Below, in pieces: positions 1,472 through 31,672 of a stretch of DNA of 32,000 nt (its first letter is position 1; each line of letters begins with the position of its first letter). The stretch lies in contig NC_007517.1 of the NCBI RefSeq assembly GCF_000012925.1, positions 330,001 through 362,000 of the forward strand. The letters are read 5' to 3'. The translations under genes and the position numbers were made by a program. Source of the DNA: Geobacter metallireducens GS-15. Lineage in GTDB: Bacteria; Desulfobacterota; Desulfuromonadia; Geobacterales; Geobacteraceae. The notes beneath the pieces are model-generated. The model was not told the origin of the DNA. It did not search any database and was given only the letters and a program-made list of their open reading frames with translations.

Positions 1472-1482
1472 TGTTGAGCCTC

Positions 1483-2054: not shown

Positions 2055-2234
2055 AGCGACTAATTGAAGAGGTCGTATTCTAATGAAGGTCGGACGCTCA
2101 CGTCAGGGAGCCACCGGCACATCCGGGGTCTGGACTGCTCCCGGCAGCTGCGGTACATTTTGTCGGCACATGATGAAAGGGGCAGGACCAGAGGATGCAA
2201 ATCTCCCACGAAAGGAGCAAGAGAGGTGAATGAA

Positions 2235-3692
2235 ATGCTGATGAGTAATGTGAAGCGGTGGGCCGCCGTCACGGCTTTTACCGCAATGGCGGCGGTCGGT
2301 ACGGGGTGTGCCCCGAAAAAGGTGGAACAGGACAAATCGGCGAGCGTCGCCGACGGGACCATCGATCCGGCCGGATGGAAAAAGGCCTATCCGGCCCAGT
2401 ACGAGCTCTGGAAGAAGACCGAGGAGCCGACCCCGACGGGCAAAAGCCGTTACAAGAAGGGGTATGACGAGGACGGGGTTTTCTACGACAAGCTGGATGA
2501 GTACCCCTTCCTGGCGCTCCTTTACAACGGCTGGGGGTTCGGCGTCGAGTACAAGGAGCCCCGGGGTCACGCCTACATGATCCATGACCAGTTCGAGGTG
2601 GACCCGGCACGGCTCAAGGCTGGCGGCTCCTGCCTCACCTGCAAGACCCCCTATGCGCCGGAGCTGCAGCAGCGGCTCGGCAAGGACTACTTCTCGAAGC
2701 CCTATAAGGAAGTTCACGCCCAGATTCCCAAGGAACACCAGATGCTCGGTGTGACCTGCATCGACTGTCACAACGGCAGTGACCTGTCGCTGAAGATCTC
2801 CCGCGGCTTCACCCTCGGCAAGGCCCTGGAGAAGCTCGGCGTCGACCGGGCCAAGCTCTCGGCCCAGGACAAGCGGACCCTTGTCTGTGCCCAGTGCCAC
2901 GTCACCTACGCCATCCCCAAGGATGGGAACATGAAATCCACGGACGTCTACTTCCCCTGGGACGGCAGCACCTACGGCGGCATCACCATCGAGAATATCA
3001 TCAAAAAGCTCCGGAGCAGTCCGGCCAACGGCGAGTGGACCCAGGGAGTGACCGGCTTCAAACTGGCCTTTATCCGCCACCCCGAGTTCGAGCTTTTCTC
3101 CAACAACAGCCCCCACTGGCAGGCGGGTGTCTCCTGCGCCGACTGCCACATGCCTTCTACTACCGCGGGGAATCAGAAGGTTTCCGACCACCGGGTCATG
3201 AGCCCCCTGAAGAACGACCTCAAGGCCTGCGCCCAGTGCCACACCGAGACCCCGGACCAGCTCCGCGGCAAGGTCTACGCCATCCAGGACCGCACCATGT
3301 CCCGGTTTATTCGGACGGGCTATGCCACCGCCACCGTGGCCAAGCTCTTCGAGATGACCAATAAGGCCGAGGCCCAGGGGAAACAGATCGATAAGACCCT
3401 CTACGCCCAGGCCAAGGACCACTACGAAGAGGCCTTCTACCGGGTGGTCTTTATCGGCGCCGAGAACTCGGTTGGCTTCCACAACCCGACCGAGGCCACG
3501 CGGGTGCTGGAAGATGCGGCCATGCACGCTGGCAAGGCCGACGGGCTCCTGCGGCAGGCCCTGGCCAAGGCAGGGGTGACGGTTCCCGCAAAGGTCGACC
3601 TGGAACTGGAGAAGTACGTGAACAATCGCGGAAGCAAGAAGTTGATGTTCAAGCCCGAGCACGAGATCAAAGACCCCCTTGCGGGGAAGTAA
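2235..3692 (+). CDS. nrfA: Pentaheme cytochrome c nitrite reductase NrfA, copy 2 (paralog, no adjacent nrfH)
   Basis: ORF 2064..3692 trimmed to the ATG at 2235, which follows AAAGGAG/GAGAGGTG. Signal peptide MLMSNVKRWAAVTAFTAMAAVGTGC. Heme motifs CLTCK, CIDCH, CAQCH, CADCH, CAQCH. Colinear with copy 1 along its whole length. Confidence 0.9.
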   Translation: MLMSNVKRWAAVTAFTAMAAVGTGCAPKKVEQDKSASVADGTIDPAGWKKAYPAQYELWKKTEEPTPTGKSRYKKGYDEDGVFYDKLDEYPFLALLYNGWGFGVEYKEPRGHAYMIHDQFEVDPARLKAGGSCLTCKTPYAPELQQRLGKDYFSKPYKEVHAQIPKEHQMLGVTCIDCHNGSDLSLKISRGFTLGKALEKLGVDRAKLSAQDKRTLVCAQCHVTYAIPKDGNMKSTDVYFPWDGSTYGGITIENIIKKLRSSPANGEWTQGVTGFKLAFIRHPEFELFSNNSPHWQAGVSCADCHMPSTTAGNQKVSDHRVMSPLKNDLKACAQCHTETPDQLRGKVYAIQDRTMSRFIRTGYATATVAKLFEMTNKAEAQGKQIDKTLYAQAKDHYEEAFYRVVFIGAENSVGFHNPTEATRVLEDAAMHAGKADGLLRQALAKAGVTVPAKVDLELEKYVNNRGSKKLMFKPEHEIKDPLAGK

Positions 3693-9631: not shown

Positions 9632-12427
9632 TTATCCCGTGTTCCTTAGCCCCGCGGCAATGCCGTTGATGGTGGCCGCCAGGACGTAGTTCAGCTCGTC
9701 GCTCTCTTCCCCGGCCCGCTTGCGCCGCAGGAGCTCGATCTGGATCATGCTCAGGGGGTCGATGTAGGGGTTCCGCAGCCGCAGCGACGCGGTCAGGGCC
9801 GGGTTCTTTTCCAGAAGCCGCGCCTGGCCCGTGACCGCCAGGACCATCCGCCGGGTCCGTTGGTATTCCTCCACGATCATGGCGAAGACCCGCTCGCGAA
9901 TTCCCGCGTCGGTCACCAGGGACGCGTAGAGTCGGGCCAGGGGGAGATCCACCTTGGTGAGGGCCAGTTCCACGTTCCTGATCAGATCGAAAAAGAAGGG
10001 GAAGCGCCCCATCATGGACCTGAGGAACTCCAACCGACCTTCTCCCCCGACGGCGAAGCGATCCAGGGCGAAGCCGACCCCGAACCAGCCCGGTATCACG
10101 TGGCGGCTCTGTATCCAGCCGAAGCCCCAGGGTATGGCCCGCAGCTCCGCTATATCCCGGCTCCGGCTCCGGCGCGCGGGGCGGGAGCCGATCTTTGCCA
10201 GCTCGAATTCCAGGACCGGCGTGGCCTGCTCGAAGTAGGGGAGGATGTCGGGGTTGCCGGTGATCCGCTCACGGTAGAAGGTGAAGGCGCTCCCCGACAT
10301 CTCCTCCAGGGCTTCCTCCCATGCCGGCTCGGGCCGTGTCTCCACGAGGCCGGCGCGGGCCAGGGTCTCCAGGGAGGCGGCCACCATCAGCTCCAGGTTC
10401 CGTTTCGCCAGGGACGGGTCGGAGTATTTCCAGTTGATGACCTCTCCCTGCTCGGTGATCTTGAGGGCGCCGGAGAAGCCGTCGGCCGGCTGGGCGATGA
10501 TGGCCCGGTGGGTGGGGCCGCCCCCCCTCCCCACGGTGCCGCCGCGGCCGTGAAAGAGGCGCAGACGCACTCCGCACTCCTGGGCCACCCGCTGGAGATC
10601 CCGGTGGGCCTTGTGGATCTCCCAGGTGCTCGTGAACATCCCCCCGTCCTTGTTGGAATCCGAATAGCCGAGCATCACCTCTTGCCGGCGTCCCCACGAA
10701 TCGAGAAACGGCCCGTATTCGGGCGAGCACCAGAGGGCGCGGCAGATCCCCGGCGCGTTGCGCAGGTCTTCGATGGACTCGAAGAGGGGGACCGGCATCA
10801 CCCCCGGGTCCTTTCCGTCCGGCGAGGCGGCCACGCGGATGCCGCAGAGCTCCATGAGCCAGATGAGGGAGAGGGTGTCCCGGGCCGAGGAGGCGCCGCT
10901 GATGACGTAGCTCCTGATTGCCTTGGGGGAGTAGCGCTGCTTCAGCTTTGCCACGGCCCGGAGGGTGTCGAGGAGTTCGGTGGTCTCGGCGGACGGGGGG
11001 GGAGGGACGGGGTGAACCCCCTCCTCGCAGCTGCCGGCGCCGGCGGCCAGCTCTGCCACGGCCCGGGCATGGATCCGGGCATGCTGCCGGATATCGAGGG
11101 CGTGGAGGTGGAAGCCGAAGGTCTCCACCTGCCGCAGGAGCGGGTCCACGTAGCGGCGTGCCAGCCGCTCCCCTTCCCCCTGGGCGAGGCTTGTGCGCAC
11201 CAGCATGAGGTCGGCGGCGAAGGCTCCGGCATCGGGATAGGCGTCGGGGTGGTCTTCCCCGTCGCGGGTCTGCATGAGGCGGTGGTGGACACACCGGAGG
11301 AATTTCCGGTATGGCTCGCACTCGGGGTAGATGCCGGTTTCCGCGGCTGCTCCGGCCAGGGCGGCGACATAGCGCTCCAGGGCCTCCCGGAGCTGCGGCG
11401 AGACCGTCACCCGATTGGTTGACGGCGTCAGGAGCTCCTTCAGTTCCTCGACCCCGTCCAGGTACCGGGCGAGGATCATCTGGCGGGCTGATTCCAGGGC
11501 GTGTCGGGTGGTGCCGACTGTCACGTTGGGGTTGCCGTCCCGATCCCCGCCGATCCAGGAGCCGAAGCGGATCACGGTGGGGAAGGCAGCATCGGGGAGG
11601 TCCGCGCCGTAGACCTGGCGGAAATCCTCGGCCATTTCTTCATAGAGGCCCGCCAGGGGCGCCATGAGGGAGCCGGGATAGTGGTCGAGCCCCATCCTGA
11701 TCTCGTCGGTCACCCCCTGGGGACGGCGGCGCACCTCGTCCGTCTGCCAGAGGGCGGTGATCTCCGCGAAGATGGCCTCCTGTCGCCGGTCAGCCTCGTC
11801 GCCGGCCAGGGGGAGGAGGTCAAGCTCCGCCAGCTCCCGGGCGATCCGGCGTCGCTTGAAGAGGACCACACGCCGCGCCACTTCCGTCGGATGAGCGGTG
11901 AAGACCGGCATGATCTCCACCTGCCGCAGCAGATCGAGGGCTTTTTCGGCCGTTATTCCCCCATCCCGCATCCGCATCAGGGTGCCCAGCAGGGAACCGG
12001 GCTTCACGGGGGCAGCGGGTGAAAGTTGCGTGGCCCGGCGCCGGCGCATCCGGTGGTTGGTCTCCGCCAGGTTGGTGAGCTCGAAGAAGGTCCCGAAGGC
12101 CTTGACGATCTGGTAGGTCTCGGCCACGGTCATCGTTCCCACGATCCTGACGGCCCGTTCCTGGAGTTCCTGCTCGGCGGGGCTGTCGAGGACCGCTTCC
12201 TCCTGGTCGGCGAGTGCCCGATGGCTGATGGCCAGCCGACGGAGCTCTTCCTCGGCATCGTAGGCAGCCGGCCCCGCCTGCTCCTTGATCACCTCACCCA
12301 GCAACCGACCCAGGGAGCGGACATCGCGCCGCAGCGGGATATCCTTCAGGGCCGGGTCCAGGGTCATCAGCTCGTTCAGCCGCACGGCCTGGTCGTCCGC
12401 CTTCCAGAACAGCTCTCGTTCCGCCAT
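9632..12427 (-). CDS. ppc: Phosphoenolpyruvate carboxylase
   Basis: 931 aa. Typical motifs VFTAHPTE, GYSDSNKDGG, FHGRGGTVGRGGGP and the C-terminal INGIAAGLRNTG. GGAGGA RBS. Confidence 0.95.
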   Translation of the reverse strand: MAERELFWKADDQAVRLNELMTLDPALKDIPLRRDVRSLGRLLGEVIKEQAGPAAYDAEEELRRLAISHRALADQEEAVLDSPAEQELQERAVRIVGTMTVAETYQIVKAFGTFFELTNLAETNHRMRRRRATQLSPAAPVKPGSLLGTLMRMRDGGITAEKALDLLRQVEIMPVFTAHPTEVARRVVLFKRRRIARELAELDLLPLAGDEADRRQEAIFAEITALWQTDEVRRRPQGVTDEIRMGLDHYPGSLMAPLAGLYEEMAEDFRQVYGADLPDAAFPTVIRFGSWIGGDRDGNPNVTVGTTRHALESARQMILARYLDGVEELKELLTPSTNRVTVSPQLREALERYVAALAGAAAETGIYPECEPYRKFLRCVHHRLMQTRDGEDHPDAYPDAGAFAADLMLVRTSLAQGEGERLARRYVDPLLRQVETFGFHLHALDIRQHARIHARAVAELAAGAGSCEEGVHPVPPPPSAETTELLDTLRAVAKLKQRYSPKAIRSYVISGASSARDTLSLIWLMELCGIRVAASPDGKDPGVMPVPLFESIEDLRNAPGICRALWCSPEYGPFLDSWGRRQEVMLGYSDSNKDGGMFTSTWEIHKAHRDLQRVAQECGVRLRLFHGRGGTVGRGGGPTHRAIIAQPADGFSGALKITEQGEVINWKYSDPSLAKRNLELMVAASLETLARAGLVETRPEPAWEEALEEMSGSAFTFYRERITGNPDILPYFEQATPVLEFELAKIGSRPARRSRSRDIAELRAIPWGFGWIQSRHVIPGWFGVGFALDRFAVGGEGRLEFLRSMMGRFPFFFDLIRNVELALTKVDLPLARLYASLVTDAGIRERVFAMIVEEYQRTRRMVLAVTGQARLLEKNPALTASLRLRNPYIDPLSMIQIELLRRKRAGEESDELNYVLAATINGIAAGLRNTG

Positions 12428-12613
12428 GATTTCATCCTCCGGTGATGGTTGTGTCCCTGTTGTTGCTGCTGTGATTCAAATGCCGTGCCGCTGGGTTGGC
12501 ATTCCCACGTGAAGGGGTGGCGCTTGCTCTGCCAGTAGGGGCGCGGCAAGCACCGCCCCTACAAATGTACCCCATTTCGAACCATATGAAAGAACGCGGA
12601 TCATCCGAATCCG

Positions 12614-12651
12614 CGTAACCCTTCTCACCCGCCACGTTACGCTATGGAAAC
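12614..12651. promoter_or_regulatory. Putative enhancer (UAS) for sigma54 promoter P2
   Basis: GTTACGCTATGGAAAC at 12636-12651 matches 10/12 arm positions. A CGTAAC half-site sits at 12614-12619. The centre is 106 bp upstream of the P2 GG. An AT-rich tract at 12694-12730 lies between UAS and promoter. Confidence 0.45.
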
Positions 12652-12747
12652 ATCTGCTTGTGCCCGCCGGCACCTCCTGCCAGTGAGTGCCCTTAAAAAA
12701 CTCCGCAAAATCAGATAGTTAATTTTTTTTATGGTGACCATCACTTT

Positions 12748-12763
12748 TGGTATGCCGATTGCC
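12748..12763 (+). promoter_or_regulatory. Sigma54 (-24/-12) promoter P2
   Basis: TGGTATGCCGATTGCC has correct GG/GC spacing. The flanks CTTTTGGTA and TTGCCATT are shared with the other three promoters. Confidence 0.7.
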
Positions 12764-12922
12764 ATTATATCGGCAACCTGCTCTTCCTGGTGTATGGTCA
12801 GCCGCCTGATCTCTGTGTCAGGGCCGTGGCAGACTGTCAAAATCCGGAAGATTAGTTGGCTGCAGCCGATGCAGCACTATCAAAAGCTGAGCGACGTTAA
12901 CAAAGGGCATGAGGAGGTCTCT

Positions 12923-14194
12923 ATGCAGTTGACAGGATTAAAGTATGGAAGAAGGCTGCTCGATCTGGTGGAGTTTCCCGTGTCGCAGGTTCTGACAGAG
13001 GATGCTTCCCACGATGAGATCAATGAGCTGATTGCATCCCATGGCGGCAAGTGTATTGTCAAACCGGTGTTCCTCGGTGGCGTGGGGAAAAAGGGTAAGG
13101 CTGGTCTAGTGCGCATTTGTTCCAATGTCTTTGACGCGATGGTCGCCAAGCGTGACCTCTTCTTTGCCACCCATCACCAGGGGAACCGCGAGGTGCAGGC
13201 CTGTGGCGTGACCTTTGAAGGATACATCGCCTCGGACATCGAGATCTACGTGAGCATCTCCGAGTCCAGTGAATACCGGATGCCGGTCCTCCTCCTGACC
13301 ACCAAGGGTGGGGTCGACGTGGAAGATGTCCCCCCCGAGGACAAGCGGACCATCGTCTTCAACCCGGTCACCGGCGTGAAGTCGTTCCATATCAACGATG
13401 CCCTGCGGGAGCTGAAGTGCCCCCCCCAGTACATCAGTTCCCTCGTTCAGCATCTGCCGAAGCTCTGGCAGGTCTATGACAACTACGGCCTCACCACCCT
13501 GGAGCTGAACCCCATCCGGATGGGGAAGGTGAAGGGGCGCTACGTCCCCTTCGCCTGCGACATCAAGGCCTCCTTCGACCAGGACAACCCGGCCTGGAAA
13601 CGGCTCGGCTACCCGGAGGAGATCTTCTCCACCACCATCACCCAGTTCGAGTCGGAGATCAATGTCCTGCGGACCCACCAGGGGCAGAGCGACGTGACGG
13701 AGGTGAACCCCAAGGGGACGATCCTCCCCTTCATCTTCGGGGGCGGGGCCAACAGCGCTGCCACGGAGATCCTGGCGGACCGGGCCATCATCTCCTCCGA
13801 CTTCGGCGGCAACCCCCCCTACGAGAAGATCAGGGCCATTGCCGACATCACCTTCAAGCACTGGCTTCCCCAGGCGAACGTGGTGCTCCTGATCGGGGGA
13901 CGGGCCAACAACACCAACATCTTCACCACCTTCAAGGCGATCTTCGATTCGCTTCGGGAGCACATCCGCCTGAACCCCGACGTCTTCGTGGTGGCGGGGC
14001 GGGGCGGTCCCATGGTGGTGGAGGGGATGGTCTACGGCAGGGACGTCCTCGACTCCCTTCGTGTCCCCTACCGCTTCTTCGGCCATGACAGCAGCATGAT
14101 GAGCGTTCTGCAGCATGCCATCGAGATCGATTCGTTTCTTGAGCCGAAACCGGTCGCGGTGGCGCCGAAGCAGATCAAGGCCAAGGCGGCGTGA
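12923..14194 (+). CDS. aclB: ATP-citrate lyase beta / citryl-CoA synthetase ATP-grasp subunit-like protein
   Basis: ORF 12731..14194 trimmed to the ATG at 12923 (GAGGAGG RBS). 423 aa. SucC/AclB-like ATP-grasp N-terminus (KPVFLGGVGKKGKAGLVRI). Directly precedes the alpha-like subunit. Confidence 0.82.
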   Translation: MQLTGLKYGRRLLDLVEFPVSQVLTEDASHDEINELIASHGGKCIVKPVFLGGVGKKGKAGLVRICSNVFDAMVAKRDLFFATHHQGNREVQACGVTFEGYIASDIEIYVSISESSEYRMPVLLLTTKGGVDVEDVPPEDKRTIVFNPVTGVKSFHINDALRELKCPPQYISSLVQHLPKLWQVYDNYGLTTLELNPIRMGKVKGRYVPFACDIKASFDQDNPAWKRLGYPEEIFSTTITQFESEINVLRTHQGQSDVTEVNPKGTILPFIFGGGANSAATEILADRAIISSDFGGNPPYEKIRAIADITFKHWLPQANVVLLIGGRANNTNIFTTFKAIFDSLREHIRLNPDVFVVAGRGGPMVVEGMVYGRDVLDSLRVPYRFFGHDSSMMSVLQHAIEIDSFLEPKPVAVAPKQIKAKAA

Positions 14195-14236
14195 GCAGCG
14201 TCGCGAGACGGAACGACTTCACGAAGGAGATAACCA

Positions 14237-16966
14237 ATGAACTATCAAAATAATCCCTTTCCCTACCACGTCGGTGTCCAGTCGCTCCACGAGCTGGCCA
14301 ACAAGCATTCCCGGGTCTGCATCATGAACATCCGGGGGACCGAGAGCTCACTCGTCACCCCCGTCTCCCACGCTTACAGCGGCGGGAACGTGGTTGCCGG
14401 GGTCCAGTACGGTGAGTCGGGCGGAACCTTCGAGACCCCCGTGGGGGACATCCCGGTCTTCGGCAGCATCTCCGACGTCATCAGGGCTGGCATCCACTTC
14501 GACACCGGCGTGGTCTATCTCCCCCCCAGCGCCGTTTCCCACGCGGTGTCGGAGATGTGCGCCCGTAACGTCAACCTGAAGCGGATCGTCATCGTGACCG
14601 AGAAGGTCTCGGCCCGGGATTCGCGCCTGATCCGCTACGGCTGCCAGAACGCCAAGGTGGACGTGATCGGGGCCAACACCCTGGGGATTGCCAACTCCTG
14701 GGATCAGGTGCGGATCGGCGGCGCCCTGGGGGGGGACGTTCCGGCCCAGAGCCTGCGGAAGGGGAGTGTCGCCATCTACAGTAACTCCGGCAACTTCAGC
14801 ACCACCATCTCCGAGTACCTGAAGACCGCCGGGTTCGGAACCTCCACCATCCTCAGCAGCGGCAAGGACGTCTACATCCATTTCGCCCTGGCGGAATTCC
14901 TCTACTGCGCCGAGAACGACCCCCGCACCAAGGCCATCGTGGTCTACGTGGAACCGGGGGGGTACTACGAGAAGCAGGCCCTTGACTGGATCAGCGAGGG
15001 GCGCTTCAAGCTGACCAAGCCGATCATCGCCTGCGTGACCGGGCGGTGGAAGAAGAACCTGACCCGCTCCTGCGGCCACGCCGGAGCCATGGCGGGAAGC
15101 GGCGACGACGCCGAGGCGAAGGAGATCTGGTTCGATGACTTCTTCGGGGTGCCGGTCTTTGATCCGGAGCGGCCAGAGGTCTCCAAACGGGGGATCCGGA
15201 TCAGGACCATCCAGGATGTGCCCGAGGCGGTCACCGCCTGCATGGAGCTCATGGGCGAAAATCCCGACTTTCCCTCCACGGGGGATCTGAGCCTCAAGCC
15301 GTGGTTCGTAAACGATCAGGATCTGACCATGCCCCAGCAACTCCGGATGCATCCGGTGCGGGCCATCTCCCCCTACGGGGAGGAGATCGAGAAGTTCAAC
15401 AAGCTGGTGGGGGCCCGCATCATGCGGGAGCCCATGCGCAACCGCTCCGGCGCCAGCGCCATCGACCCGGCCGACTTCACCATCTCGCTCCACGGCCGCA
15501 AGCTCCTGGATCTCATCGAGGAGCCCTTCGGCGCCGTGACGGCCTACTCGGTCCTGAAGACCATGCCCGACGCCGGTCAGATGGCCGTCATCAACCCGCT
15601 CCTCAACTGGTTCGCGGCCCGGGGAAGCGAGAATATCGCCACTGTGGCTAGGGGGAGGGCCAACGGCTGCACCCCCAACGCCGCCATCGGCGCCGAGGTG
15701 CTCCTTGCGGGGAACAATCCCCTCTTTGAGTCGCTGCGGGCCACGAGCTCCTGGCTCATCGACCGGTTCTTCCACGAGACCGGGGGAGATCTCTCCATCA
15801 ACGAGGAGCTCATCGAGAAAGCATGCAGCGACGGCGAGGGATTCCCCGCCGCCGTGGAGGACCCCCGTTCGGAACAGCTGGCGGAGTATTTCGGAGCACT
15901 GCTCCGGACCCATGGCCAGGAGACAATCCTCACCCGTTTCGCCCAGGTGTATAGCGAGAAACGTCGCGCCGAGGGAGAACCCGTTGATTCCTTCACGCTT
16001 CTCGCCTCCGCCATCCTCCTGGGGCTCGCCTGGAAACCCCTGGCGGAGCGCCGCATCGCCCGGGAGGTTGCCCAGGATCTCGGGACGTACCTGGGGCTGA
16101 ACGGGATCATCGTTGGCGTCTCTCCCGTGAACCCGGAGCGGAATCCCTTCTGGCAGAAACTCCACGCGCTCATGGATCCGACGATCCTCTCTACCGATTT
16201 TGCGTCCACCTGCTTCCAGGTGCTTTTCAACCGGGTTCCGCAGGAGCAGGAGCTCTTCACCTACAACGCGCTCCTCAACCTCACCGTCACCAACGGCCCG
16301 GGAACCCTCAGCGCCAAGGGAGCCAAGGAAAGCATCAGCGCCCGCAACCACATCGCCACGGCCTATGCCGGCTTCCTGGCCAACACCGGCCTGGCCCACG
16401 GGGGGAATGGCTTCGAATCGGTGAGCTATCTCCTGGACATCTTCTCGGAGACCGACCCGTACCAGGGAACCCCGGTGGAGTTGGACCCGGTCCTCAAGGG
16501 GCTGGCAGCCCGGGCAACCCAGGAATTCGTGGTCCGGAAGAAGAAGGCGAAGATCGAAGGGGCGACGGAGCGGATTCCGTGCATCAACCATCCGGTGTTC
16601 CGCGACAAGGCCGAAAACCACGACCCGCGAGAGGTCTTCATCCGCAATCTTCTCAAGGGGAAGGAGATCCAGAATCCCTTCCTGGAGTTCTACCACCACC
16701 TGGTCACGGAGCTCCACGCCGAGGGGATAACGAGCAACGTCTACTGCGTCAACGTCGATGCGGTCATCGCGTGCATCGCCCTGGATCTCCTCTGGAAGCA
16801 GCTCCGGGACGGCGAAATCAGCGAGCAGGATGCCCAGGAGATCGTCTTCATCATGTTCCTCTACGGCCGGATGGCGGGGGTGTCGGCCGAAATCGCCGAC
16901 CACCTGGGCAGGGGACAGGATCTCGACTGCCGCACCAATCCCGGCGAGCTGGTGTATCTGGCGTAG
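14237..16966 (+). CDS. aclA: ATP-citrate lyase alpha-like large subunit: SucD-like CoA-ligase domain plus long insert plus citrate-synthase-like domain
   Basis: 909 aa. Phosphohistidine loop SCGHAGAMAGSG. C-terminal citrate-synthase-like motifs GLAHGGNG and INHPVFRDKAENHDPRE. AAGGAG RBS. Confidence 0.82.
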   Translation: MNYQNNPFPYHVGVQSLHELANKHSRVCIMNIRGTESSLVTPVSHAYSGGNVVAGVQYGESGGTFETPVGDIPVFGSISDVIRAGIHFDTGVVYLPPSAVSHAVSEMCARNVNLKRIVIVTEKVSARDSRLIRYGCQNAKVDVIGANTLGIANSWDQVRIGGALGGDVPAQSLRKGSVAIYSNSGNFSTTISEYLKTAGFGTSTILSSGKDVYIHFALAEFLYCAENDPRTKAIVVYVEPGGYYEKQALDWISEGRFKLTKPIIACVTGRWKKNLTRSCGHAGAMAGSGDDAEAKEIWFDDFFGVPVFDPERPEVSKRGIRIRTIQDVPEAVTACMELMGENPDFPSTGDLSLKPWFVNDQDLTMPQQLRMHPVRAISPYGEEIEKFNKLVGARIMREPMRNRSGASAIDPADFTISLHGRKLLDLIEEPFGAVTAYSVLKTMPDAGQMAVINPLLNWFAARGSENIATVARGRANGCTPNAAIGAEVLLAGNNPLFESLRATSSWLIDRFFHETGGDLSINEELIEKACSDGEGFPAAVEDPRSEQLAEYFGALLRTHGQETILTRFAQVYSEKRRAEGEPVDSFTLLASAILLGLAWKPLAERRIAREVAQDLGTYLGLNGIIVGVSPVNPERNPFWQKLHALMDPTILSTDFASTCFQVLFNRVPQEQELFTYNALLNLTVTNGPGTLSAKGAKESISARNHIATAYAGFLANTGLAHGGNGFESVSYLLDIFSETDPYQGTPVELDPVLKGLAARATQEFVVRKKKAKIEGATERIPCINHPVFRDKAENHDPREVFIRNLLKGKEIQNPFLEFYHHLVTELHAEGITSNVYCVNVDAVIACIALDLLWKQLRDGEISEQDAQEIVFIMFLYGRMAGVSAEIADHLGRGQDLDCRTNPGELVYLA

Positions 16967-16992
16967 CGTACCCCTCACCCGCCCTTCGGGCA

Positions 16993-17013
16993 CCCTCTCC
17001 CCCGGGGAGAGGG
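16993..17013 (+). other. Intercistronic GC hairpin between the ACL-like and CBS genes
   Basis: CCCTCTCC / GGAGAGGG stem (8-9 bp) with a tiny loop and no T-tract. It may be an RNA-stability or processing element. Confidence 0.3.
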
Positions 17014-17049
17014 GGAAGAAAACGACCGTTGGAACAAGGAGGTGGCTCC

Positions 17050-17493
17050 ATGGAGGCATTGAAAAAAATCCGCAACACCCCCGTATCCGAGTACATGCAG
17101 CGGGAAGTGGCCAGCATTGAAGGGAGCCAGACCGTTGCCCAGGCGATCCAGCTCATAAAGACGAGAAAGGTTGCCAGCCTTGTGGTCCTTCCCCGCAACG
17201 AGGACGATGTGTACGGCATCCTCACGGTGCGGGACATCCTCGGCAAGGTCATCGACCCGGGGGAGAACATCTACCGCGATATCTGGAACACCCAGGTGCA
17301 CGACATCATGACCAAGCCGGTCTACAGCATCGACCCGACCATGCGGGTGAAGTACGCGCTGCGGATGATGAACCGGCTCGGCGTCCGGCGGCTCGTGGTG
17401 CTCCGGGGGAACGAACTGGCGGGGATCATCAGCGAGATCGAGATCTTCCGGGCAGTCGAGGATTTGCCGGCAGTGGCCCAGGTGGCCCTGTAG
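17050..17493 (+). CDS. CBS-pair domain protein
   Basis: 147 aa with two CBS repeats (EYMQREVASIE...GILTVRDIL and DIMTKPVYSID...GIISEIEIF). AGGAGG RBS. Confidence 0.88.
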   Translation: MEALKKIRNTPVSEYMQREVASIEGSQTVAQAIQLIKTRKVASLVVLPRNEDDVYGILTVRDILGKVIDPGENIYRDIWNTQVHDIMTKPVYSIDPTMRVKYALRMMNRLGVRRLVVLRGNELAGIISEIEIFRAVEDLPAVAQVAL

Positions 17494-17520
17494 CCGCAAC
17501 ACCCACGCAGGGAGGCAGTC

Positions 17521-19224
17521 ATGGAGCACAAATTCGACATAGTCATCGTCGGGGCAGGGGGAGGAGGGCTGTTCGCCGCCCTGGAGGCGGTGCGCACCAA
17601 CCCGCGGGTTTCCGTGGCCGTCATCTCCAAGGTCTACCCGACCCGCTCCCATACCTCCGCGGCCCAGGGGGGGGTCAACGCGGCCCTGGGGAACAAGGAC
17701 CGGGACGACACCGTGGATCTCCATGTCTTCGACACCGTCAAGGGGAGCGACTACCTGGCGGACCAGGATGCCGTCGACTACCTCTGCAGCCAGGCCCCGT
17801 CGGTGGTGCGGGAGCTGGAGAACCTGGGGGCGCCGTTTTCGCGATTCGCTGATGGCACCATCGCCCAGCGCCCCTTCGGCGGGACCGTGAAGGACCGCTG
17901 CTGCTACTGCGCCGACAAGACCGGCCATACCCTCCTCCACACCCTGTTCGAGCAGTGCCTCCGCCGGGGGGTGACGTTCTTCAACGAATATTTCCTCCTC
18001 TCCCTGGAGCATGCCGACGGCGACTGCCAGGGGGTCATCACCCTGAACATGGCCACGAGCGCCATCGAGACCTTTGTGGCCCCGGTGGTCATCCTGGCCA
18101 CCGGCGGCCACGCCAAGATGTACTGGAACCGCTCCAGCAACGCGGCCGGCAACACCGGTGACGGCCAGGCCGCGGCCCTGCGGGCCGGCATTCCCCTGAA
18201 GGACATGGAGTTCATCCAGTTCCACCCGACGGGCCTGCGCAAGAGCGGGCTCCTGGTGACGGAAGGGGCGAGGGGCGAGGGGGGGTATCTCCTCAACCGC
18301 CACGGGGAGCGCTTCATGGTCCGCTATGCCCCCCAGAAGATGGAGCTGGGTCCCCGGGACCTGGTGGCCCGCTCCATGGAGACGGAGATCATCGAGGGGA
18401 ACGGCTTCGAGAGCGATGCCGGGAGCTACATCGAACTGGATCTCCGCCACCTGGGTGCCGAGGCCATCAAGAAGAAGCTCCCCCAGATCAGGGAACTCTC
18501 CATGCACTTCGAGGGGGTGGACCCCATCGCGGAGCCGATCCCGGTCCGTCCCACGGCCCACTACTCCATGGGGGGGATCGACGCCCACATGGCGAAGACC
18601 GCGGTCCGCGGCGTCTTTGCCGTGGGGGAGTGCGCCTGCGTCTCCGTGCACGGGGCCAACCGGCTGGGGGGAAACTCGCTCCTGGACATCCTGGTGTTCG
18701 GGAAACGAGCGGGACAGGAGGCGGCCGAGGAGGCCCCCCGGCGCAGGGCGCTGGGGATACCCCCGGGCGCGGTTGCGGGGATGGCCGACGAAATCAGGTC
18801 GTACGCCAATCCTGAGCGCTACGAGCGTTACGGCATCATCAGGGAGGAGATGGGAAAGGCCATGGGGGACAACGTGGGGATCTATCGGGTCGAAGAGAGG
18901 CTCCGCACGGGGGTGGAAGAGATCCTGGCCCTGCGGGAGCGCTTCCGGCGCATCCGGCTCTTCGACACGGGGACCGTCTACAACACCAACCTGATTCAGA
19001 TCCTGGAGCTCAAGAACATGCTCGACCTGGCCTCCTGCGTCGCCATCACCGCCCTGGCCCGGCAGGAGAGCAGGGGGTCCCATTACCGCGAGGACTTCCC
19101 CCGGCGTGACGACGGAGCGTGGCACATCCATTCCCTCTGCACCATGGAGCGGGATGGCGAGGTCCGTCTCGGCCACAAGCCGGTCACCATGGGGAAATAC
19201 TCCCTCGAGACAAGGAGTTACTAA
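17521..19224 (+). CDS. sdhA: Succinate dehydrogenase/fumarate reductase flavoprotein subunit (cytoplasmic, no Tat/Sec signal)
   Basis: 567 aa. FAD fold DIVIVGAGGGGLFAA. FHPTG covalent-FAD histidine context. HYSMGG and RLGGNSL motifs. Confidence 0.93.
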   Translation: MEHKFDIVIVGAGGGGLFAALEAVRTNPRVSVAVISKVYPTRSHTSAAQGGVNAALGNKDRDDTVDLHVFDTVKGSDYLADQDAVDYLCSQAPSVVRELENLGAPFSRFADGTIAQRPFGGTVKDRCCYCADKTGHTLLHTLFEQCLRRGVTFFNEYFLLSLEHADGDCQGVITLNMATSAIETFVAPVVILATGGHAKMYWNRSSNAAGNTGDGQAAALRAGIPLKDMEFIQFHPTGLRKSGLLVTEGARGEGGYLLNRHGERFMVRYAPQKMELGPRDLVARSMETEIIEGNGFESDAGSYIELDLRHLGAEAIKKKLPQIRELSMHFEGVDPIAEPIPVRPTAHYSMGGIDAHMAKTAVRGVFAVGECACVSVHGANRLGGNSLLDILVFGKRAGQEAAEEAPRRRALGIPPGAVAGMADEIRSYANPERYERYGIIREEMGKAMGDNVGIYRVEERLRTGVEEILALRERFRRIRLFDTGTVYNTNLIQILELKNMLDLASCVAITALARQESRGSHYREDFPRRDDGAWHIHSLCTMERDGEVRLGHKPVTMGKYSLETRSY

Positions 19225-20258
19225 TGGAACGGCGAGAGGTTTCATTCCGCATCTACCGCTACAACCCCCAGGTTGACCGCACTCCTTTTTACGACAACTT
19301 CAGGATTGCCGTCGAGAAGGGGATTACCATCCTGCGCGCCCTGAACCACATCAAGGAGCACCTGGAGCCGCGCCTTACCTTCCGGGCCTTCTGCCAGGCG
19401 GGAATCTGCGGTTCCTGCGCGGTCCGCATCAACGGGGTCTCGAAGCTTGCCTGCACGACCCAGGTCTGGGACGAGCTGGGGGGGGACGGAGAACACACGA
19501 TCCTCATCGAGCCCCTGAACAATCTGGAAGTGATCCGGGACCTGGTGGTGGACATCGACCCGATCATGGACAAGCTGAAAGAGAATTACAGCTGGGTTAA
19601 GCCGGCGATCCCCCAGGAGGAAATGGGTCGGAAAGAGCATCTCGTGAGCGACGGGGAGTTCGAGGCCATCAACGCGGCATCGGACTGTATCCTCTGCGGG
19701 TCGTGCTACTCGGAGTGCAGCATGATGGAGGTGAACCGGAGCTACATCTCGCCGCCGGTCCTCGTGAAGGCGTTCCGCATGAATAACGACTCCCGCGACA
19801 CCCTCGCCTGTGAGCGGCTGGAGCGGGTCTCCTCCGACCACGGCCTGTGGGACTGTGCCCACTGCCACAAGTGCATGGAGCACTGCACCAAGAACATACC
19901 GATCATGGACGGCATCCACCGCCTGCGGGAGGAAGCCTTTGAGCGGGGGATGACCGACTCCGAGGGGGCCCGTCACGCCCAGGCATTCTTCGACGACATC
20001 CGCGACCTCGGCAGGCTGAGGGAGGTCACCTTGCCGCTCCGCACCAAGGGGATGATCGGGAGCCTCAGGATGGTACCCCTGGCGGTCAAGATGGGGCTCA
20101 AGGGTCGGACTCCACCCCTGTGGGTGCGGCCGATTCCCGACATCGACCGGGTCAGCGACATTTACAGCCGCCTGGAGGCAAATCCGGGCGGGGAGGCTGT
20201 AGGGGCAATTCATGAATTGCCCCTACGGTCGGCGCCACGAAGCGGAGAGTGCCTATGA
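19224..20258 (+). CDS. sdhB: Succinate dehydrogenase/fumarate reductase iron-sulfur subunit with C-terminal extension
   Basis: The ATG overlaps the sdhA TAA (TAATG). 2Fe-2S motif [21 protein letters not shown], plus [11 protein letters not shown] and [11 protein letters not shown]. About 90 extra C-terminal residues. Confidence 0.88.
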
Positions 20259-21103
20259 GATACGCTTATTTCCTGAGTTGCATCAACGAGTCCATGACCA
20301 GGGAAGTGGACCAGTCCCTCCACCTGTGGAAAAAGGACCTGGACCTCGAACTGGTGACCCTGGAGAACGGGACCTGCTGCGGGGGGAGCAACCTCGATTA
20401 CGTGAGCCCCGACCACTTCATCATCGTCAACGGGCGGAACATCGCCCTTGCGGAGCAATTGGGGCTCGATCTCGTGACCTCCTGCAGCACCTGCCTTCTG
20501 ACCCTGCGCCGCGCCAAGCATCTCCTGGGCACCTCCCCCGAGAAGCGGGAGCTGGTGAATGCCCATCTGGCGGACGAAGGGCTCCGCTATGAAGGGGCCA
20601 GCGACGTGAAGCACCTCCTCTGGGTCATCAACGAGGATTACGGACTGGAGAGGCTTGCCGGCAAGGTGACCGCCCCTCTCTGGGGGGTCCGCTTCGCCCC
20701 GTTCTACGGCTGCCACATCCTGCGCCCCTCCTCCCTCCTGGGGAGGGACAACCCCGCCGCCCCCTCGTCCCTGGACCGCCTGGTTGAGGCCCTTGGCGGG
20801 AGCCTGGTGGAGTACGGCTCCAAGAACAAGTGCTGCGGCTTCCATACCCTCCTGGTGGCGGAGAAGCAGTCCCTCGCCATGACGGGGAACGCCCTTGAGG
20901 ATGCGCTCCGGGCCGGGGCCGACTACATCGTCACCCCGTGCCCCCTCTGTCACACCGCCCTCGATGCCTACCAGGACAGGGCTCTGTCGGGACGTGCCGC
21001 GGCCGGAAACATTCCGGTCCTCCACCTCTCCCAGATGATCGGCCTCGCCTTGGGATATTCAAAAGAGGAGCTCGGCATAGACCGTCATATGGTCGCCGCA
21101 TAG
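20255..21103 (+). CDS. HdrB-like CCG-domain subunit (type E SdhE / thiol:fumarate reductase-like)
   Basis: ATGA overlap with the sdhB stop. Two cysteine-rich CCG repeats (GTCCGG...SCSTC and KCCGFH...PCPLCH). No TM helices. Confidence 0.85.
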
Positions 21104-21161
21104 TCAGTCCGATACATTTTTGAGTGGACGAGCACTTACAGCCATGGGTGCTCCTTTCTCT

Positions 21162-21187
21162 GGCCGGGGGACGCTCCGGCCTTTTTT
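21162..21187 (+). terminator. Rho-independent terminator at the end of the ACL-like/fumarate reductase operon
   Basis: GGCCGG (21162-21167) pairs with CCGGCC (21176-21181) around an 8-nt loop, followed by TTTTTT. Confidence 0.75.
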
Positions 21188-21222: not shown

Positions 21223-21260
21223 GGTAACTCTTCTCTCCCACTATGTTACCGTACGGTAAC
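21223..21260. promoter_or_regulatory. Putative enhancer (UAS) for sigma54 promoter P3
   Basis: Perfect 16-bp palindrome GTTACCGTACGGTAAC at 21245-21260, plus a GGTAAC half-site at 21223-21228. The centre is 105 bp upstream of the P3 GG. Confidence 0.55.
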
Positions 21261-21355: not shown

Positions 21356-21371
21356 TGGTACACCACTTGCC
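21356..21371 (+). promoter_or_regulatory. Sigma54 (-24/-12) promoter P3
   Basis: TGGTACACCACTTGCC has correct GG/GC spacing and is followed by TTGCCATT as in P2 and P4. Confidence 0.7.
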
Positions 21372-21439
21372 ATTAGTCATGGCAAGGAATCTCGATGGCT
21401 CGTCTGTCACCCGTCCGGTTTTCGCAGGAGGTGAAAATC

Positions 21440-22219
21440 ATGGGAAAAATTCTGGAATTGGTTGGCGGCCCCCCCGCATCGGGGAAAACAACGTACATTC
21501 GAACAAACTATGAAACCAAGGGTAGCGGGGAGTTCGTGCATCTTGATTACGACGCAATGGTCGTCAAGGAAGCGGGGAGGTGCCGCGGAGATGTTCAGGA
21601 ACAGGATGTCAGGGATCATGTCAGCATGGTGTACGGTCGCGAGCGCTCCACGGTAATTTACGGTGATGCCGGGAGAGTGACGGTGGATTGGCCCTTTTGC
21701 GTGTCGAAAAGGGCTGAGGAGTACATCTCGATTGGCCGTAATGCCGGCCGTCACATTGAATGCAACTTTTTTACGGCACAGGCCACCGAAGCCTGGAAAC
21801 GGTCGCTGACCCGGCATGTGGCCGGCGAATACAACGCGTTTACGGTCTTTCTGAATAAACACGCCGACATTGGAGAATCATTGCGGCCGAGTTTTCAGGA
21901 CTTTCTGGAAGCCCACCGTGACATGCCGGCATCCGTCGAGCGGATTTTCCCCCAGGCCGACGTGGCGTATCTCTGGGACAACAACGAGCGGGATGCCGTG
22001 CCGGTGCTCATCGCAACGTGCAAAAAAGGCGAAAAAATTCACGTCATCGACCAGGGCCGGTGGGACCGGTTTCAGTACAAGCGGGAGATTGACATTGATG
22101 CCGAATTCGAGGTGCTGGACAGTCGTGTCGAGGAATTCCAGGGAAAGCCGAGAACTCTGTTCAAGGTGCAGTATGCCAATGTAATACGGAGTGGGAGAGA
22201 GAAGGAGTTTTTGATTTAG
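21440..22219 (+). CDS. P-loop kinase, zeta-toxin/AAA_33-like, with no adjacent antitoxin
   Basis: ORF 21395..22219 trimmed to the ATG at 21440 (AGGAGG RBS). Walker A LVGGPPASGKTT at residues 7-18. 259 aa. GC is lower than in the upstream operon. Confidence 0.72.
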   Translation: MGKILELVGGPPASGKTTYIRTNYETKGSGEFVHLDYDAMVVKEAGRCRGDVQEQDVRDHVSMVYGRERSTVIYGDAGRVTVDWPFCVSKRAEEYISIGRNAGRHIECNFFTAQATEAWKRSLTRHVAGEYNAFTVFLNKHADIGESLRPSFQDFLEAHRDMPASVERIFPQADVAYLWDNNERDAVPVLIATCKKGEKIHVIDQGRWDRFQYKREIDIDAEFEVLDSRVEEFQGKPRTLFKVQYANVIRSGREKEFLI

Positions 22220-31522: not shown

Positions 31523-31559
31523 CGTAACGTTTCCCACCCATCCGTTACCGCAAGGTAAC
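31523..31559. promoter_or_regulatory. Putative enhancer (UAS) for sigma54 promoter P4
   Basis: GTTACCGCAAGGTAAC at 31544-31559 has perfect 6-bp arms. A CGTAAC half-site sits at 31523-31528. The centre is 107 bp upstream of the P4 GG. An AT-rich tract at 31598-31645 lies between. Confidence 0.55.
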
Positions 31560-31656: not shown

Positions 31657-31672
31657 TGGTACGTCACTTGCC
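31657..31672 (+). promoter_or_regulatory. Sigma54 (-24/-12) promoter P4
   Basis: TGGTACGTCACTTGCC has correct GG/GC spacing, with the shared flanks CTTTTGGTA and TTGCCATT. Confidence 0.7.

Follow-up and report, generated by a model that had tools for sequence, protein, structure and literature searches.

What does Geobacter metallireducens GS-15 do with a cluster that joins a citrate-cleaving enzyme to a second fumarate reductase? [quoted passage not shown]

Organization of the gene cluster

In the window (the whole 32,000-nt stretch of DNA that was analysed), ppc and a divergent six-gene cluster were identified with Pfam and NCBIfam profiles (Table 1). The seven products are identical in sequence to those of Gmet_0304–Gmet_0310, and the window corresponds to chromosome positions 330001–362000, so that adding 330000 to its gene coordinates gives the published ones (Gmet_0304, 339632–342427). 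Gaps within the cluster are short (aclB–aclA, 42 nt; aclA–CBS, 83 nt; CBS–sdhA, 27 nt), sdhA and sdhB overlap by TAATG and sdhB and sdhE by ATGA, and neither a sigma-70-like site nor a strong internal terminator was found. The layout of Gmet_0305–0310 is that of a single transcription unit with one sigma-54 promoter ahead of it and one terminator behind it. A preliminary description of this DNA had already claimed six tight genes between 12923 and 21103, a clean terminator after them and a ppc gene diverging across 495 bp; the profile calls, gaps and overlaps, the hairpin with its TTTTTT run and the measured spacer bear this out. IS21, DDE and ISL3 elements lie close downstream.

Table 1 Features of the locus, in window coordinates
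Feature	Position	Strand	Remarks
ppc, phosphoenolpyruvate carboxylase, Gmet_0304	9632–12427	-	PF00311 E 7e-274; NF000584 863 bits (cutoff 815)
Divergent control region, ppc/aclB-like	12428–12922	.	Exactly 495 bp; conserved blocks in four-locus Geobacter alignment
Palindrome ACGCGGATcatccgaATCCGCGT	12594–12616	.	Assumed to be the previously proposed 'UAS'; not conserved
Candidate enhancer-binding-protein site GTTACGCTATGGAAAC	12636–12651	+	Consensus GTTACS-N4-GGWAAC; 112 nt before -24 element
Sigma-54 -24/-12 promoter element TGGTATGCCGATTGC	12748–12762	+	Invariant in four Geobacter loci
aclB-like/ccsA-like subunit, Gmet_0305, 423 aa	12923–14194	+	ATP-grasp_2 PF08442 and Citrate_bind PF16114
aclA-like large subunit, Gmet_0306, 909 aa	14237–16966	+	CoA_binding, Succ_CoA_lig and Citrate_synt
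Internal degenerate citryl-CoA-lyase module copy in aclA-like, residues ~425–630	15509–16126	+	Lacks catalytic motifs
CBS-pair protein, Gmet_0307, 147 aa	17050–17493	+	PF00571 E 1.5e-23, two stretches
sdhA flavoprotein, Gmet_0308	17521–19224	+	TIGR01812 790 bits (cutoff 567)
sdhB iron-sulfur subunit, Gmet_0309, 344 aa	19224–20258	+	TIGR00384 207 bits (cutoff 88)
sdhE, CCG/HdrB-like subunit, Gmet_0310	20255–21103	+	PF02754 E 8e-28; NF042965 247 bits, below cutoff of 500
Intrinsic terminator GGCCGGGGGACGCTCCGGCC + TTTTTT	21162–21187	+	Strong; hairpin 21162–21181, 8 pairs (7 GC)
Second upstream site GTTACCGTACGGTAAC and sigma-54 element	21245–21260 and 21356–21370	+	Ahead of Gmet_0311; conserved in L001, L002 and L003
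Gmet_0311, P-loop gene, AAA_33/zeta-toxin-like	21440–22219	+	Annotated start
Third upstream site GTTACCGCAAGGTAAC and sigma-54 element	31544–31559 and 31657–31671	+	Before multihaem cytochrome c ORF

The putative citrate-cleaving enzyme

The best PDB match of the aclB-like protein is the large subunit of citryl-CoA synthetase (CCS; 6hxq_B, E 1.6e-36), and the N-terminal 290 residues of the aclA-like protein match the Hydrogenobacter enzyme (6HXQ, E 1.1e-33, Foldseek rank 1). The latter chain runs from a CoA-binding/phosphohistidine domain through a linker and a degenerate lyase-like domain to a catalytic citryl-CoA-lyase (CCL) domain, and its AF2 model aligns over ~640–680 columns with Chlorobium, Methanothrix and human ATP-citrate lyase (ACL). 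Invariant in 20 homologues (50–86% identity) are H281 (GHAGA), H721 (AHGGN), H785 (NHPVF), D841 (NVD), R798 and R899; N686 stands where the DHG motif of CCL has histidine. Comparison of the degenerate region with residues 649–884 by hhalign gave a probability of 97% (E 2.8e-11), against E values of 0.18–0.78 for reversed, shuffled and N-terminal controls, and when its profile was compared with the PDB, H. thermophilus CCL (6hxp_A) shared first place, at an E value of only 0.2. The extra ~300 aa of AclA are a degenerate internal duplicate of the lyase domain, predicted to be helical with high pLDDT, and probably have a structural role.

[quoted passage not shown] The earlier label 'ATP-citrate-lyase-like' holds for citrate-lyase identity and fails for the classical type, since a 6HXQ-like synthetase is fused to a citryl-CoA-lyase domain. 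The ATP-grasp/citrate-binding subunit Gmet_0305 and the H281 phosphohistidine domain would form citryl-CoA, which the C-terminal lyase domain of Gmet_0306 (H721, H785 and D841) would split into acetyl-CoA and oxaloacetate.

The reductase and its CBS partner

SdhA carries an RSHT motif at residue 42, which we take to be the covalent-FAD histidine motif, SdhB has two CxxCxxCxxxC motifs (residues 155 and 211) and SdhE two CX(n)CCGX(n)CXXC motifs; a search of the reductase subunits for transmembrane segments found none. Relatives of the 'type E' SdhABE group are regarded as membrane-associated quinone enzymes. SdhE is 100% identical to a G. metallireducens protein and 62–68% identical to those of Chlorobiales and Chloroherpeton, and Gmet_0308 is annotated as a 'type E' Sdh/Frd flavoprotein in Dataset S1 of Feist et al. 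2014 (PMC3998878). Gmet_0308–0310 appear to encode a 'type E' fumarate reductase/succinate dehydrogenase that has no anchor and came from Chlorobi; the 'soluble-type' reductase first suggested agrees with the lack of a transmembrane segment, but the label goes too far, as the enzyme belongs to the Chlorobi-type 'type E' SdhABE.

CBS orthologues (52–54% identity) are placed equivalently in L010, in L011 and in the Chloroherpeton locus L012, the last of which has the order CBS–sdhA–sdhB–sdhB'–sdhE (CBS, 54% identity). Judged by gene order, the CBS-pair protein belongs with the sdhABE unit as a conserved partner and is no bridge between the enzymes: it does lie between the two, but it travels with sdhABE in Chloroherpeton. 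This partner probably senses an adenosine nucleotide.

Promoters and shared upstream sites

Three sigma-54 elements occur in the window against 0.2 expected (0 of 100 shuffles gave three), and the -24/-12 element ahead of the aclB-like gene is unchanged across four Geobacter loci (window, L001, L002 and L003) with diverging flanks, both of which support the sigma-54 promoter proposed at the outset. The GAGGAGG RBS and the ATG of the aclB-like gene are also conserved in the alignment of Geobacter loci. The palindromic UAS proposed along with the promoter, assumed here to be 12594–12616, did not hold up: it represents a 19-nt insertion found in the window and, in degenerate form, in L003, and is missing from L001 and L002.

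The half-sites at 12636–12651 are invariant in the alignment of the four Geobacter loci. Their consensus, GTTACS-N4-GGWAAC, occurs three times in the window against 0.00 expected, for a motif defined after the data had been seen, and each site lies 111–113 nt before a sigma-54 element, at all three window promoters; the pairing is repeated in L001, L002 and L003. The cytochrome c ORF behind the third promoter extends past the window end and, by position, is the gene preceding Gmet_0326–0327; the orthologous promoter and cytochrome were found in L016 and L015, and in L001 genes for a 4Fe-4S protein and an NrfD subunit come after the cytochrome c. On microarrays, Gmet_0304, 0306, 0326 and 0327 have parallel profiles, which we count in favour of shared regulation. 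An enhancer-binding protein may bind GTTACS-N4-GGWAAC ~112 nt upstream and turn the operon on, and the same protein would probably turn on Gmet_0311 and the cytochrome c/FeS/NrfD quinone complex; a search of the 32,000-nt window found no enhancer-binding protein gene.

Previous accounts and distribution

The locus is the published Gmet_0305–0310 cluster, and the operon finding is real, not new. Aklujkar et al. 2009 (PMC2700814, Fig. 4) drew and described Gmet_0304–Gmet_0310, and Feist et al. 2014 (PMC3998878) proposed a reverse TCA cycle; in their model iAF987, ACITL is assigned to Gmet_0305 and Gmet_0306, and FRD to Gmet_2395-97 or Gmet_0308-10. Given the ACITL assignment and the 'type E' annotation of Gmet_0308, the reverse-TCA reading was already published, and the reverse-TCA or citrate-cleavage reading drawn from the letters alone matches it. 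The main texts of 2009 and 2014 and the searched parts of their supplements mention neither the sigma-54 promoter with its shared upstream site, nor the internal duplication of Gmet_0306, the Chlorobi CBS–Sdh linkage or the presence of the cassette in further phyla.

The six-gene order is repeated in a Leptospirales MAG and a metagenome contig (AclA identity, 56–57%), and four Geobacter lineages (86–96%) conserve promoter, upstream site and RBS. These conserved control elements, the intact frames and the invariant catalytic residues indicate purifying selection on genes and regulation. In Desulfosarcina variabilis the homologues of the two genes are surrounded by mdh, frd, acn, icd and korDABC, and in Desulfobacter the homologue, 52% identical, belongs to a stand-alone aclBA pair; both contexts are counted for a TCA-cycle role. 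ATP-citrate-lyase activity in Desulfobacter was reported by Moller 1987 and Schauder 1987, as cited in later work. None of the homologous loci examined has a linked citrate transporter.

Proposed role and alternatives

Growth on formate with Fe(III), as predicted, was observed (Feist et al. 2014, PMC3998878); as this test was run in Fe(III)-citrate medium, citrate may have been a carbon source. G. sulfurreducens was turned autotrophic by Chlorobium aclAB alone, a result that gives no reason for an additional fumarate reductase. In the available part of the microarray dataset (PMC3998878), Gmet_0306 stood at 6.4 log2 on acetate/Fe(III) citrate, near the lowest values, and at only 8.2 log2 on phenol. 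The operon was scarcely expressed under any of the conditions tested, and every microarray culture contained 55 mM Fe(III) citrate.

The best explanation, to which we assign a probability of roughly 60%, is a sigma-54 operon whose CCS/CCL-fusion citrate lyase and 'type E' reductase enable a reductive TCA cycle or citrate cleavage. Geobacter has reversible 2-oxoglutarate:ferredoxin and pyruvate:ferredoxin oxidoreductases; with the citrate lyase and SdhABE added to them, the TCA cycle would become reductive or citrate would be cleaved, and ppc would supply oxaloacetate.

We consider it unlikely that the enzymes work oxidatively as in Desulfobacter postgatei, where the lyase would be reversed, forming citrate from acetyl-CoA and oxaloacetate and conserving one ATP, and SdhABE would oxidize succinate, so that more ATP would be gained from oxidizing acetate or aromatics, with no CO2 fixation. 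Toluene activation uses up fumarate that must be regenerated from succinate, and supplying toluene or phenol as donor brings a modest rise in expression, both in keeping with such use; however, the acetate signal is near background, an anchorless enzyme would have no obvious means of driving succinate oxidation by menaquinone, and the nearest SdhABE relatives are in Chlorobiales, which are reverse-TCA autotrophs. ACL has been described as catalysing a fully reversible reaction, and Moller et al. 1987 reported just such an ATP-yielding use in Desulfobacter, the holder of the lone aclBA pair, but G. metallireducens possesses its own citrate synthase family and in the 2014 model (PMC3998878) the ancestral FrdCAB spends membrane potential to oxidize succinate.

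Similarly doubtful is the assimilation of citrate (or a related acid) with no CO2 fixation, in which imported citrate would be converted to acetyl-CoA and oxaloacetate as carbon source and the reductase would shed reducing equivalents or handle another enoate. The sole growth evidence for 'autotrophy' came from Fe(III)-citrate medium, and N686 replaces a CCL histidine, yet the operon was nearly silent on acetate despite the citrate in all microarray cultures, 0 of the loci examined link a citrate transporter, and the Desulfosarcina TCA supercluster favours the cycle itself. Least probable is a laterally acquired, mostly silent island that came with the adjoining nitrate-respiration genes and has little present role in GS-15: the Chlorobi-like origin of the Sdh genes, the cassette in an unrelated phylum, the IS21, DDE and ISL3 elements immediately downstream and the low expression would suit it, but every reading frame is intact, the catalytic residues are invariant and the control elements are kept in four Geobacter lineages.

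Comparison with known systems

'Type II' ATP-citrate lyase (Hugler & Sievert 2011 via PMC3522073; PMC6315080) likewise consists of two subunits, the large one a ccsB-like/ccl-like fusion, and, like Gmet_0305/0306, is distinct from classical AclAB and linked to reverse-TCA genes. In tubeworm symbionts this linkage includes a CCG-type fumarate reductase, tfrAB, whereas the Gmet reductase is accompanied by a CBS partner and is split into SdhB and SdhE. A similar large-subunit fusion is seen in the CCS/CCL-to-ACL intermediates of Thiel et al. 2017 (PMC5459899); Gmet_0305/0306 may belong to 'type II' or to the intermediate Spirochaete/Planctomycete clade.

Hydrogenobacter thermophilus CCS and CCL (6HXQ and 6HXP) are the best sequence and fold matches, and the Gmet lyase motifs align with CCL, but Gmet_0306 is a single 909-aa chain, in which an additional degenerate lyase-like domain separates the lyase from the part equivalent to the small CCS subunit. 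Chlorobium limicola AclAB (6HXJ) and human ACLY share the domain order and the catalytic His/His/Asp set, with ~640 columns aligning, yet at ~16–17% identity and with a large subunit of 617 aa against 909 aa; no ACL-specific NCBIfam/Pfam model reached its cutoff with the Gmet proteins (Citrate_synth_N, 43 bits against 83).

SdhABE, Campylobacter MfrABE and methanogen TfrAB share with the Gmet reductase a flavoprotein, an FeS subunit with two CxxCxxCxxxC motifs and a two-CCG HdrB-like subunit, and likewise have no haem-b membrane anchor. The Gmet reductase scores below the Mfr equivalog cutoffs and its flavoprotein match begins at Mfr-model position 48, so that the model's N-terminal leader region lies outside the match. 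Compared with type E systems, the Gmet cluster is without an SdhF-like small subunit and carries a CBS-pair gene directly upstream.

Gene content and setting of the operon

Seven genes in the region were supported by profile searches, and the coordinates assigned to them in the preliminary description proved correct. In the operon (Gmet_0305–0310), the first four genes are spaced by gaps of 42, 83 and 27 nt, the remaining two junctions are overlaps (TAATG and ATGA), and a strong terminator lies 3′ of the last gene; a scan of the operon for sigma-70-like internal promoters and strong internal terminators found neither. The spacer between aclB and the divergent ppc measures 495 bp. Riboswitches, sRNAs and tRNAs were sought across the window, and none was found. 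The aclA–CBS spacer contains a GC-rich hairpin (CCCTCTCCCC/GGGGAGAGGG), which we rejected as a conserved attenuator or processing site given that its sequence is not conserved and its folding z-score against shuffled sequences is 0.26; among the three Geobacter/Desulfuromonadales loci with the same operon (L001, L002 and L003), L002 and L003 carry other hairpins in this spacer and L001 has none.

Features of the window. Published genome coordinates are those given by Feist et al. 2014 (PMC3998878, Dataset S1); upstream sites and sigma-54 elements are paired by the gene that they precede.
Feature	Window position	Strand	Support or context	Published coordinates
Cytochrome c552 (NrfA-type nitrite reductase)	5-1780	-		
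Cytochrome c552 (NrfA-type nitrite reductase)	2064-3692	+		
ppc (Gmet_0304)	9632-12427	-	Pfam/NCBIfam	339632-342427
Palindrome	12594-12616			
Upstream site	12636-12651		ahead of ACL-Sdh operon	
Sigma-54 element	12748-12762		ahead of ACL-Sdh operon	
aclB-like (Gmet_0305), ATP-grasp/citrate-binding protein, 423 aa	12923-14194	+	Pfam/NCBIfam	342923-344194
aclA-like (Gmet_0306), CoA-binding, CoA-ligase and citrate-synthase-like domains, 909 aa	14237-16966	+	Pfam/NCBIfam	344237-346966
Putative degenerate lyase copy in aclA-like	15509-16126			
aclA-CBS spacer	16967-17049			
CBS pair (Gmet_0307)	17050-17493	+	Pfam/NCBIfam	347050-347493
SdhA-type flavoprotein (Gmet_0308)	17521-19224	+	Pfam/NCBIfam	347521-349224
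SdhB-type iron-sulfur protein (Gmet_0309)	19224-20258	+	Pfam/NCBIfam	
HdrB-like protein, two CCG motifs, sdhE (Gmet_0310)	20255-21103	+	Pfam/NCBIfam	
Terminator	21162-21181		3′ of operon	
Upstream site	21245-21260		ahead of Gmet_0311	
Sigma-54 element	21356		ahead of Gmet_0311	
Gmet_0311	21395-22219		ORF; annotated 21440-22219	
Mobile-element block	~22.2-31.3 kb			
Upstream site	31544-31559		ahead of multihaem cytochrome c gene	
Sigma-54 element	31657		ahead of multihaem cytochrome c gene	

The operon is located within a nitrate/nitrite-respiration and molybdenum-cofactor neighbourhood. The two divergent cytochrome c552 genes are followed by genes for a 4Fe-4S binding (Fer4_5) protein, an HPP membrane protein, MobA-MobB, MoaA and a MOSC protein, and nar genes are annotated downstream of the window. 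Gmet_0311, which has a sigma-54 promoter of its own, lies directly 3′ of the operon terminator; it encodes a P-loop AAA_33/zeta-toxin-like protein and has a counterpart at the same position in L001, L003 and a further relative locus (L015). Between Gmet_0311 and the third promoter lies a block of mobile elements of lower GC (0.42–0.58), comprising an IS21-type IstB ATPase with an adjacent rve integrase and DDE_Tnp_1, DUF772 and ISL3 transposases; as the flanking units are contiguous in L001 and L015, this block is an insertion in GS-15.

An anchorless reductase and its CBS partner

The flavoprotein SdhA, with a TIGR01812 score of 790 bits (cutoff 567) and RSHT at residue 42 (which we take to be the covalent-FAD histidine motif), has the features of a type E SdhA. 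SdhB likewise conforms to type E, with two CxxCxxCxxxC motifs (residues 155 and 211), the second of which holds the extra cysteine in the usual 3Fe-4S motif that marks this type, and SdhE is HdrB-like, with two PF02754 stretches (E = 8e-28) and two CX(n)CCGX(n)CXXC motifs. The maximum 19-residue hydropathy of SdhE is 1.27 and thus indicates no transmembrane segment; such segments were sought in all six operon proteins and none was found. We regard the enzyme, from its sequence, as an anchorless member of the ‘type E’ class, for which menaquinol, a thiol or another compound may be the electron donor; the earlier label ‘soluble-type’ was only half apt, as it fits the missing membrane anchor, but the family is that of type E.

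The closest relatives of SdhE outside Geobacter belong to Chlorobiales, Chloroherpeton and Prosthecochloris (62–68% identity), a Chlorobi-like kinship that agrees with Aklujkar et al. 2009 (PMC2700814). In Chloroherpeton thalassium the gene order is CBS-sdhA-sdhB-sdhB′-sdhE, with a CBS protein 54% identical to that of the window, and given this linkage we consider the CBS protein to be a partner of the reductase unit, which corrects the role suggested by its mention in the preliminary description as embedded between the two enzymes.

A fused lyase with a putative internal duplication

The aclB-like subunit matches PF08442 (E = 8.6e-14) and PF16114 Citrate_bind (E = 6.1e-13), both over their cutoffs, and so has the ATP-grasp/citrate-binding part of an ATP-citrate lyase (ACL). 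The CoA-binding part of the aclA-like subunit matches PF02629 and PF13607 and contains the phosphohistidine loop of ACL (GHAGA, residues 280–284), whose H281 is invariant in 20 homologues (50–86% identity). Also invariant in these homologues are H721 (AHGGN), H785 (NHPVF), R798, D841 (NVD) and R899 of the lyase domain, the motifs of which line up with those of citryl-CoA lyase (CCL) and supply the His/His/Asp/Arg set of ACL; H721, H785 and D841 are presumably the counterparts of pig CS H274, H320 and D375. Where CCL has the histidine of its DHG motif, the aclA-like subunit has an invariant asparagine (N686).

Among solved structures, the aclB-like and aclA-like proteins have their best relatives in Hydrogenobacter citryl-CoA synthetase (CCS; 6HXQ), each matching one of its two subunits (E = 1.6e-36 and 1.1e-33, respectively). 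An AlphaFold model of the aclA-like subunit (mean pLDDT 77) aligned best with 6hxq_A, and also aligned with the ACL enzymes of Chlorobium, Methanothrix and human over approximately 640–680 columns. ACL-specific profiles did not recognize this subunit (PF24948 scored 43 bits, its cutoff being 83, and NCBIfam gave no match to an ACL model), and a single-sequence PDB search with its C-terminal 610 aa returned CCL alone (E = 0.3). Membership of the classical (type I) AclAB was rejected on the basis of length (909 aa versus approximately 610 in classical AclA), the ACL profile score under its cutoff and a top PDB match to CCS rather than ACL. A search of the literature for a purified member of the Gmet_0305/0306 lyase clade found none.

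We read the approximately 300 extra residues as a likely tandem duplication of the lyase module, the first copy of which appears dead. When residues 400–645 were compared with residues 646–909, hhalign gave a probability of 97% and an E value of 2.8e-11 over 197 columns, versus E values of 0.18–0.78 for controls (reversed, shuffled and N-terminal domain). The degenerate copy (residues ~425–630) is without the AHGGN, NHPVF and NVD motifs, and the middle domain is predicted with high confidence to be helical. Because the profile of the middle region matched the PDB at an E value of only 0.2 (Hydrogenobacter CCL joint top), the evidence for duplication is the hhalign comparison and its controls. 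Such a duplication would account in structural terms for the unusual length of the large subunit, and the dead copy might conceivably take a pseudo-dimer role.

Linkage in other genomes

The six-gene order is kept in three further Geobacter/Desulfuromonadales genomes (86–96% identity); the same order, tightly packed, is found in a Leptospirales MAG (L011) and a metagenome contig (L010), in which AclA identity is 56–57%. In fifteen pairs of AclA and SdhE matches the longest contig has the same length for both members, so that the two probably, though not certainly, share a contig. The recurring six-gene order is evidence that the lyase, the CBS protein and the reductase can move together as a unit. 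As a general rule, aclBA-sdhABE linkage was rejected, the aclBA pair occurring by itself in Desulfobacter, a Spirochaetia MAG, a Lambdaproteobacteria MAG and KSB1, and on the contigs of two further homologues (P0019 and P0021). In Desulfosarcina variabilis (CP159846.1, 1705547–1728270), a near-complete TCA supercluster on one strand contains mdh, frd subunits, aclB, aclA, aconitase (acn), isocitrate dehydrogenase (icd) and a four-gene ferredoxin/POR-type 2-oxoacid:ferredoxin oxidoreductase set that we read as korDABC, in this order, together with a carboxylase; the position of aclBA inside this cluster connects it with the TCA cycle.

A candidate regulatory site shared by three promoters

The proposal that the operon is sigma-54-driven is supported by a −24/−12 element ahead of its first gene (TGGTATGCCGATTGC; GG-N10-GC), which is invariant in the four aligned loci (the window, L001, L002 and L003) while its flanks vary. 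The window holds three sigma-54 elements versus 0.2 expected, and rpoN is present in the genome (Gmet_1283). The window also contains three copies of an upstream site, GTTACS-N4-GGWAAC, versus 0.00 expected for this motif, which was defined after seeing the data; each copy lies 111–113 nt before its own sigma-54 element, and the pairs of site and promoter recur in L001, L002 and L003. The multihaem cytochrome c gene behind the third promoter is followed by FeS and membrane subunits (Gmet_0326–0327), and in relatives free of the GS-15 insertion sequences both Gmet_0311 and the cytochrome units are contiguous with sdhE. A metagenome scan for the composite of site and promoter retrieved orthologous Geobacter loci only, plus one unrelated, probably chance, match. 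A scan of window ORFs for an enhancer-binding protein gene (Sigma54_activat) gave no match. The palindromic UAS of the preliminary description, which we take to be the palindrome listed in the table, was dismissed as an activator site, being an insertion absent from two of the four loci.

Microarray log2 values from the Feist et al. 2014 dataset (PMC3998878).
Gene	Acetate	Benzoate	Toluene	Phenol
Gmet_0304	6.77	7.28	8.23	8.79
Gmet_0306	6.40	6.91	7.50	8.22
Gmet_0326	6.70	7.48	8.07	8.49
Gmet_0327	6.60	7.08	7.79	8.20

The microarray profiles of these four genes are parallel, which together with the shared site fits one activator, although a profile of this kind may be common to many genes. The candidate site suggests that one enhancer-binding protein may serve the ACL-Sdh operon, Gmet_0311 and the cytochrome c/FeS/NrfD complex, and offers a testable regulatory element common to three promoters.

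Physiological role

We suggest, with a probability of roughly 60%, that the operon would provide the citrate-cleaving and fumarate-reducing steps of a reductive TCA cycle and be controlled by an enhancer-dependent switch. The preliminary description was broadly right in its reverse-TCA/citrate-cleavage reading, which had already been published for this locus: Feist et al. 2014 (PMC3998878) reconstructed the reductive TCA cycle and reported growth on formate with Fe(III). Several points weaken this reading. ACL alone is enough for autotrophy in G. sulfurreducens, and operon expression was near background in all four microarray conditions. The formate growth that validated ‘autotrophy’ used Fe(III)-citrate medium (methods of PMC3998878); citrate split by the Gmet_0305/0306 lyase itself may have been the carbon source in that experiment, making the published ‘autotrophic’ growth worth re-testing. 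Three rival readings compete with it: oxidative, ATP-yielding citrate synthesis, as in Desulfobacter, in extracts of which ATP-citrate-lyase activity is reported by cited work; citrate assimilation; and an acquired, largely silent island.

If the reductive-TCA reading is extended, a more tentative and rather doubtful picture is that of a portable ‘TCA-reversal cassette’, in which a CCS/CCL-fusion lyase with an internal dead lyase copy and a CBS-regulated anchorless fumarate reductase would have moved between phyla and, in the G. metallireducens lineage, been wired into a dedicated sigma-54 regulon (one upstream site, three promoters) that would activate a cytochrome c/FeS/NrfD quinone complex as well. 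Were this true, one signal would start both the supply of electrons to the quinone pool and the flow of carbon in the reductive direction. G. metallireducens serves as a model organism in work on metal reduction and electron uptake, and whether it truly fixes CO2 by a reverse TCA cycle depends on Gmet_0305/0306, for which the lyase role is a prediction from sequence.

Relation to known systems

The window proteins are identical in sequence to the Gmet entries in the gene table of Feist et al. 2014, and the agreement of coordinates places the window at positions 330001–362000 of the GS-15 chromosome. That source assigns the ATP-citrate lyase reaction to ‘Gmet_0305 and Gmet_0306’ and lists Gmet_0308–0310 as an alternative fumarate reductase, with Gmet_0308 annotated ‘type E’ (PMC3998878). 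The same locus was covered by Aklujkar et al. 2009 (PMC2700814), the only paper returned by a literature search by locus tag for further expression studies. Because the locus is already published, the operon adds no new kind of system. The ‘type II’ ACL of Hugler & Sievert 2011 is defined as a ccsB-ccl fusion that clusters with the Magnetococcus and Endoriftia enzymes. The aclA-like subunit has this fusion architecture, and on that ground Gmet_0305/0306 match the ccsB-ccl fusion of the literature and may belong to its ‘type II’-like ACL.
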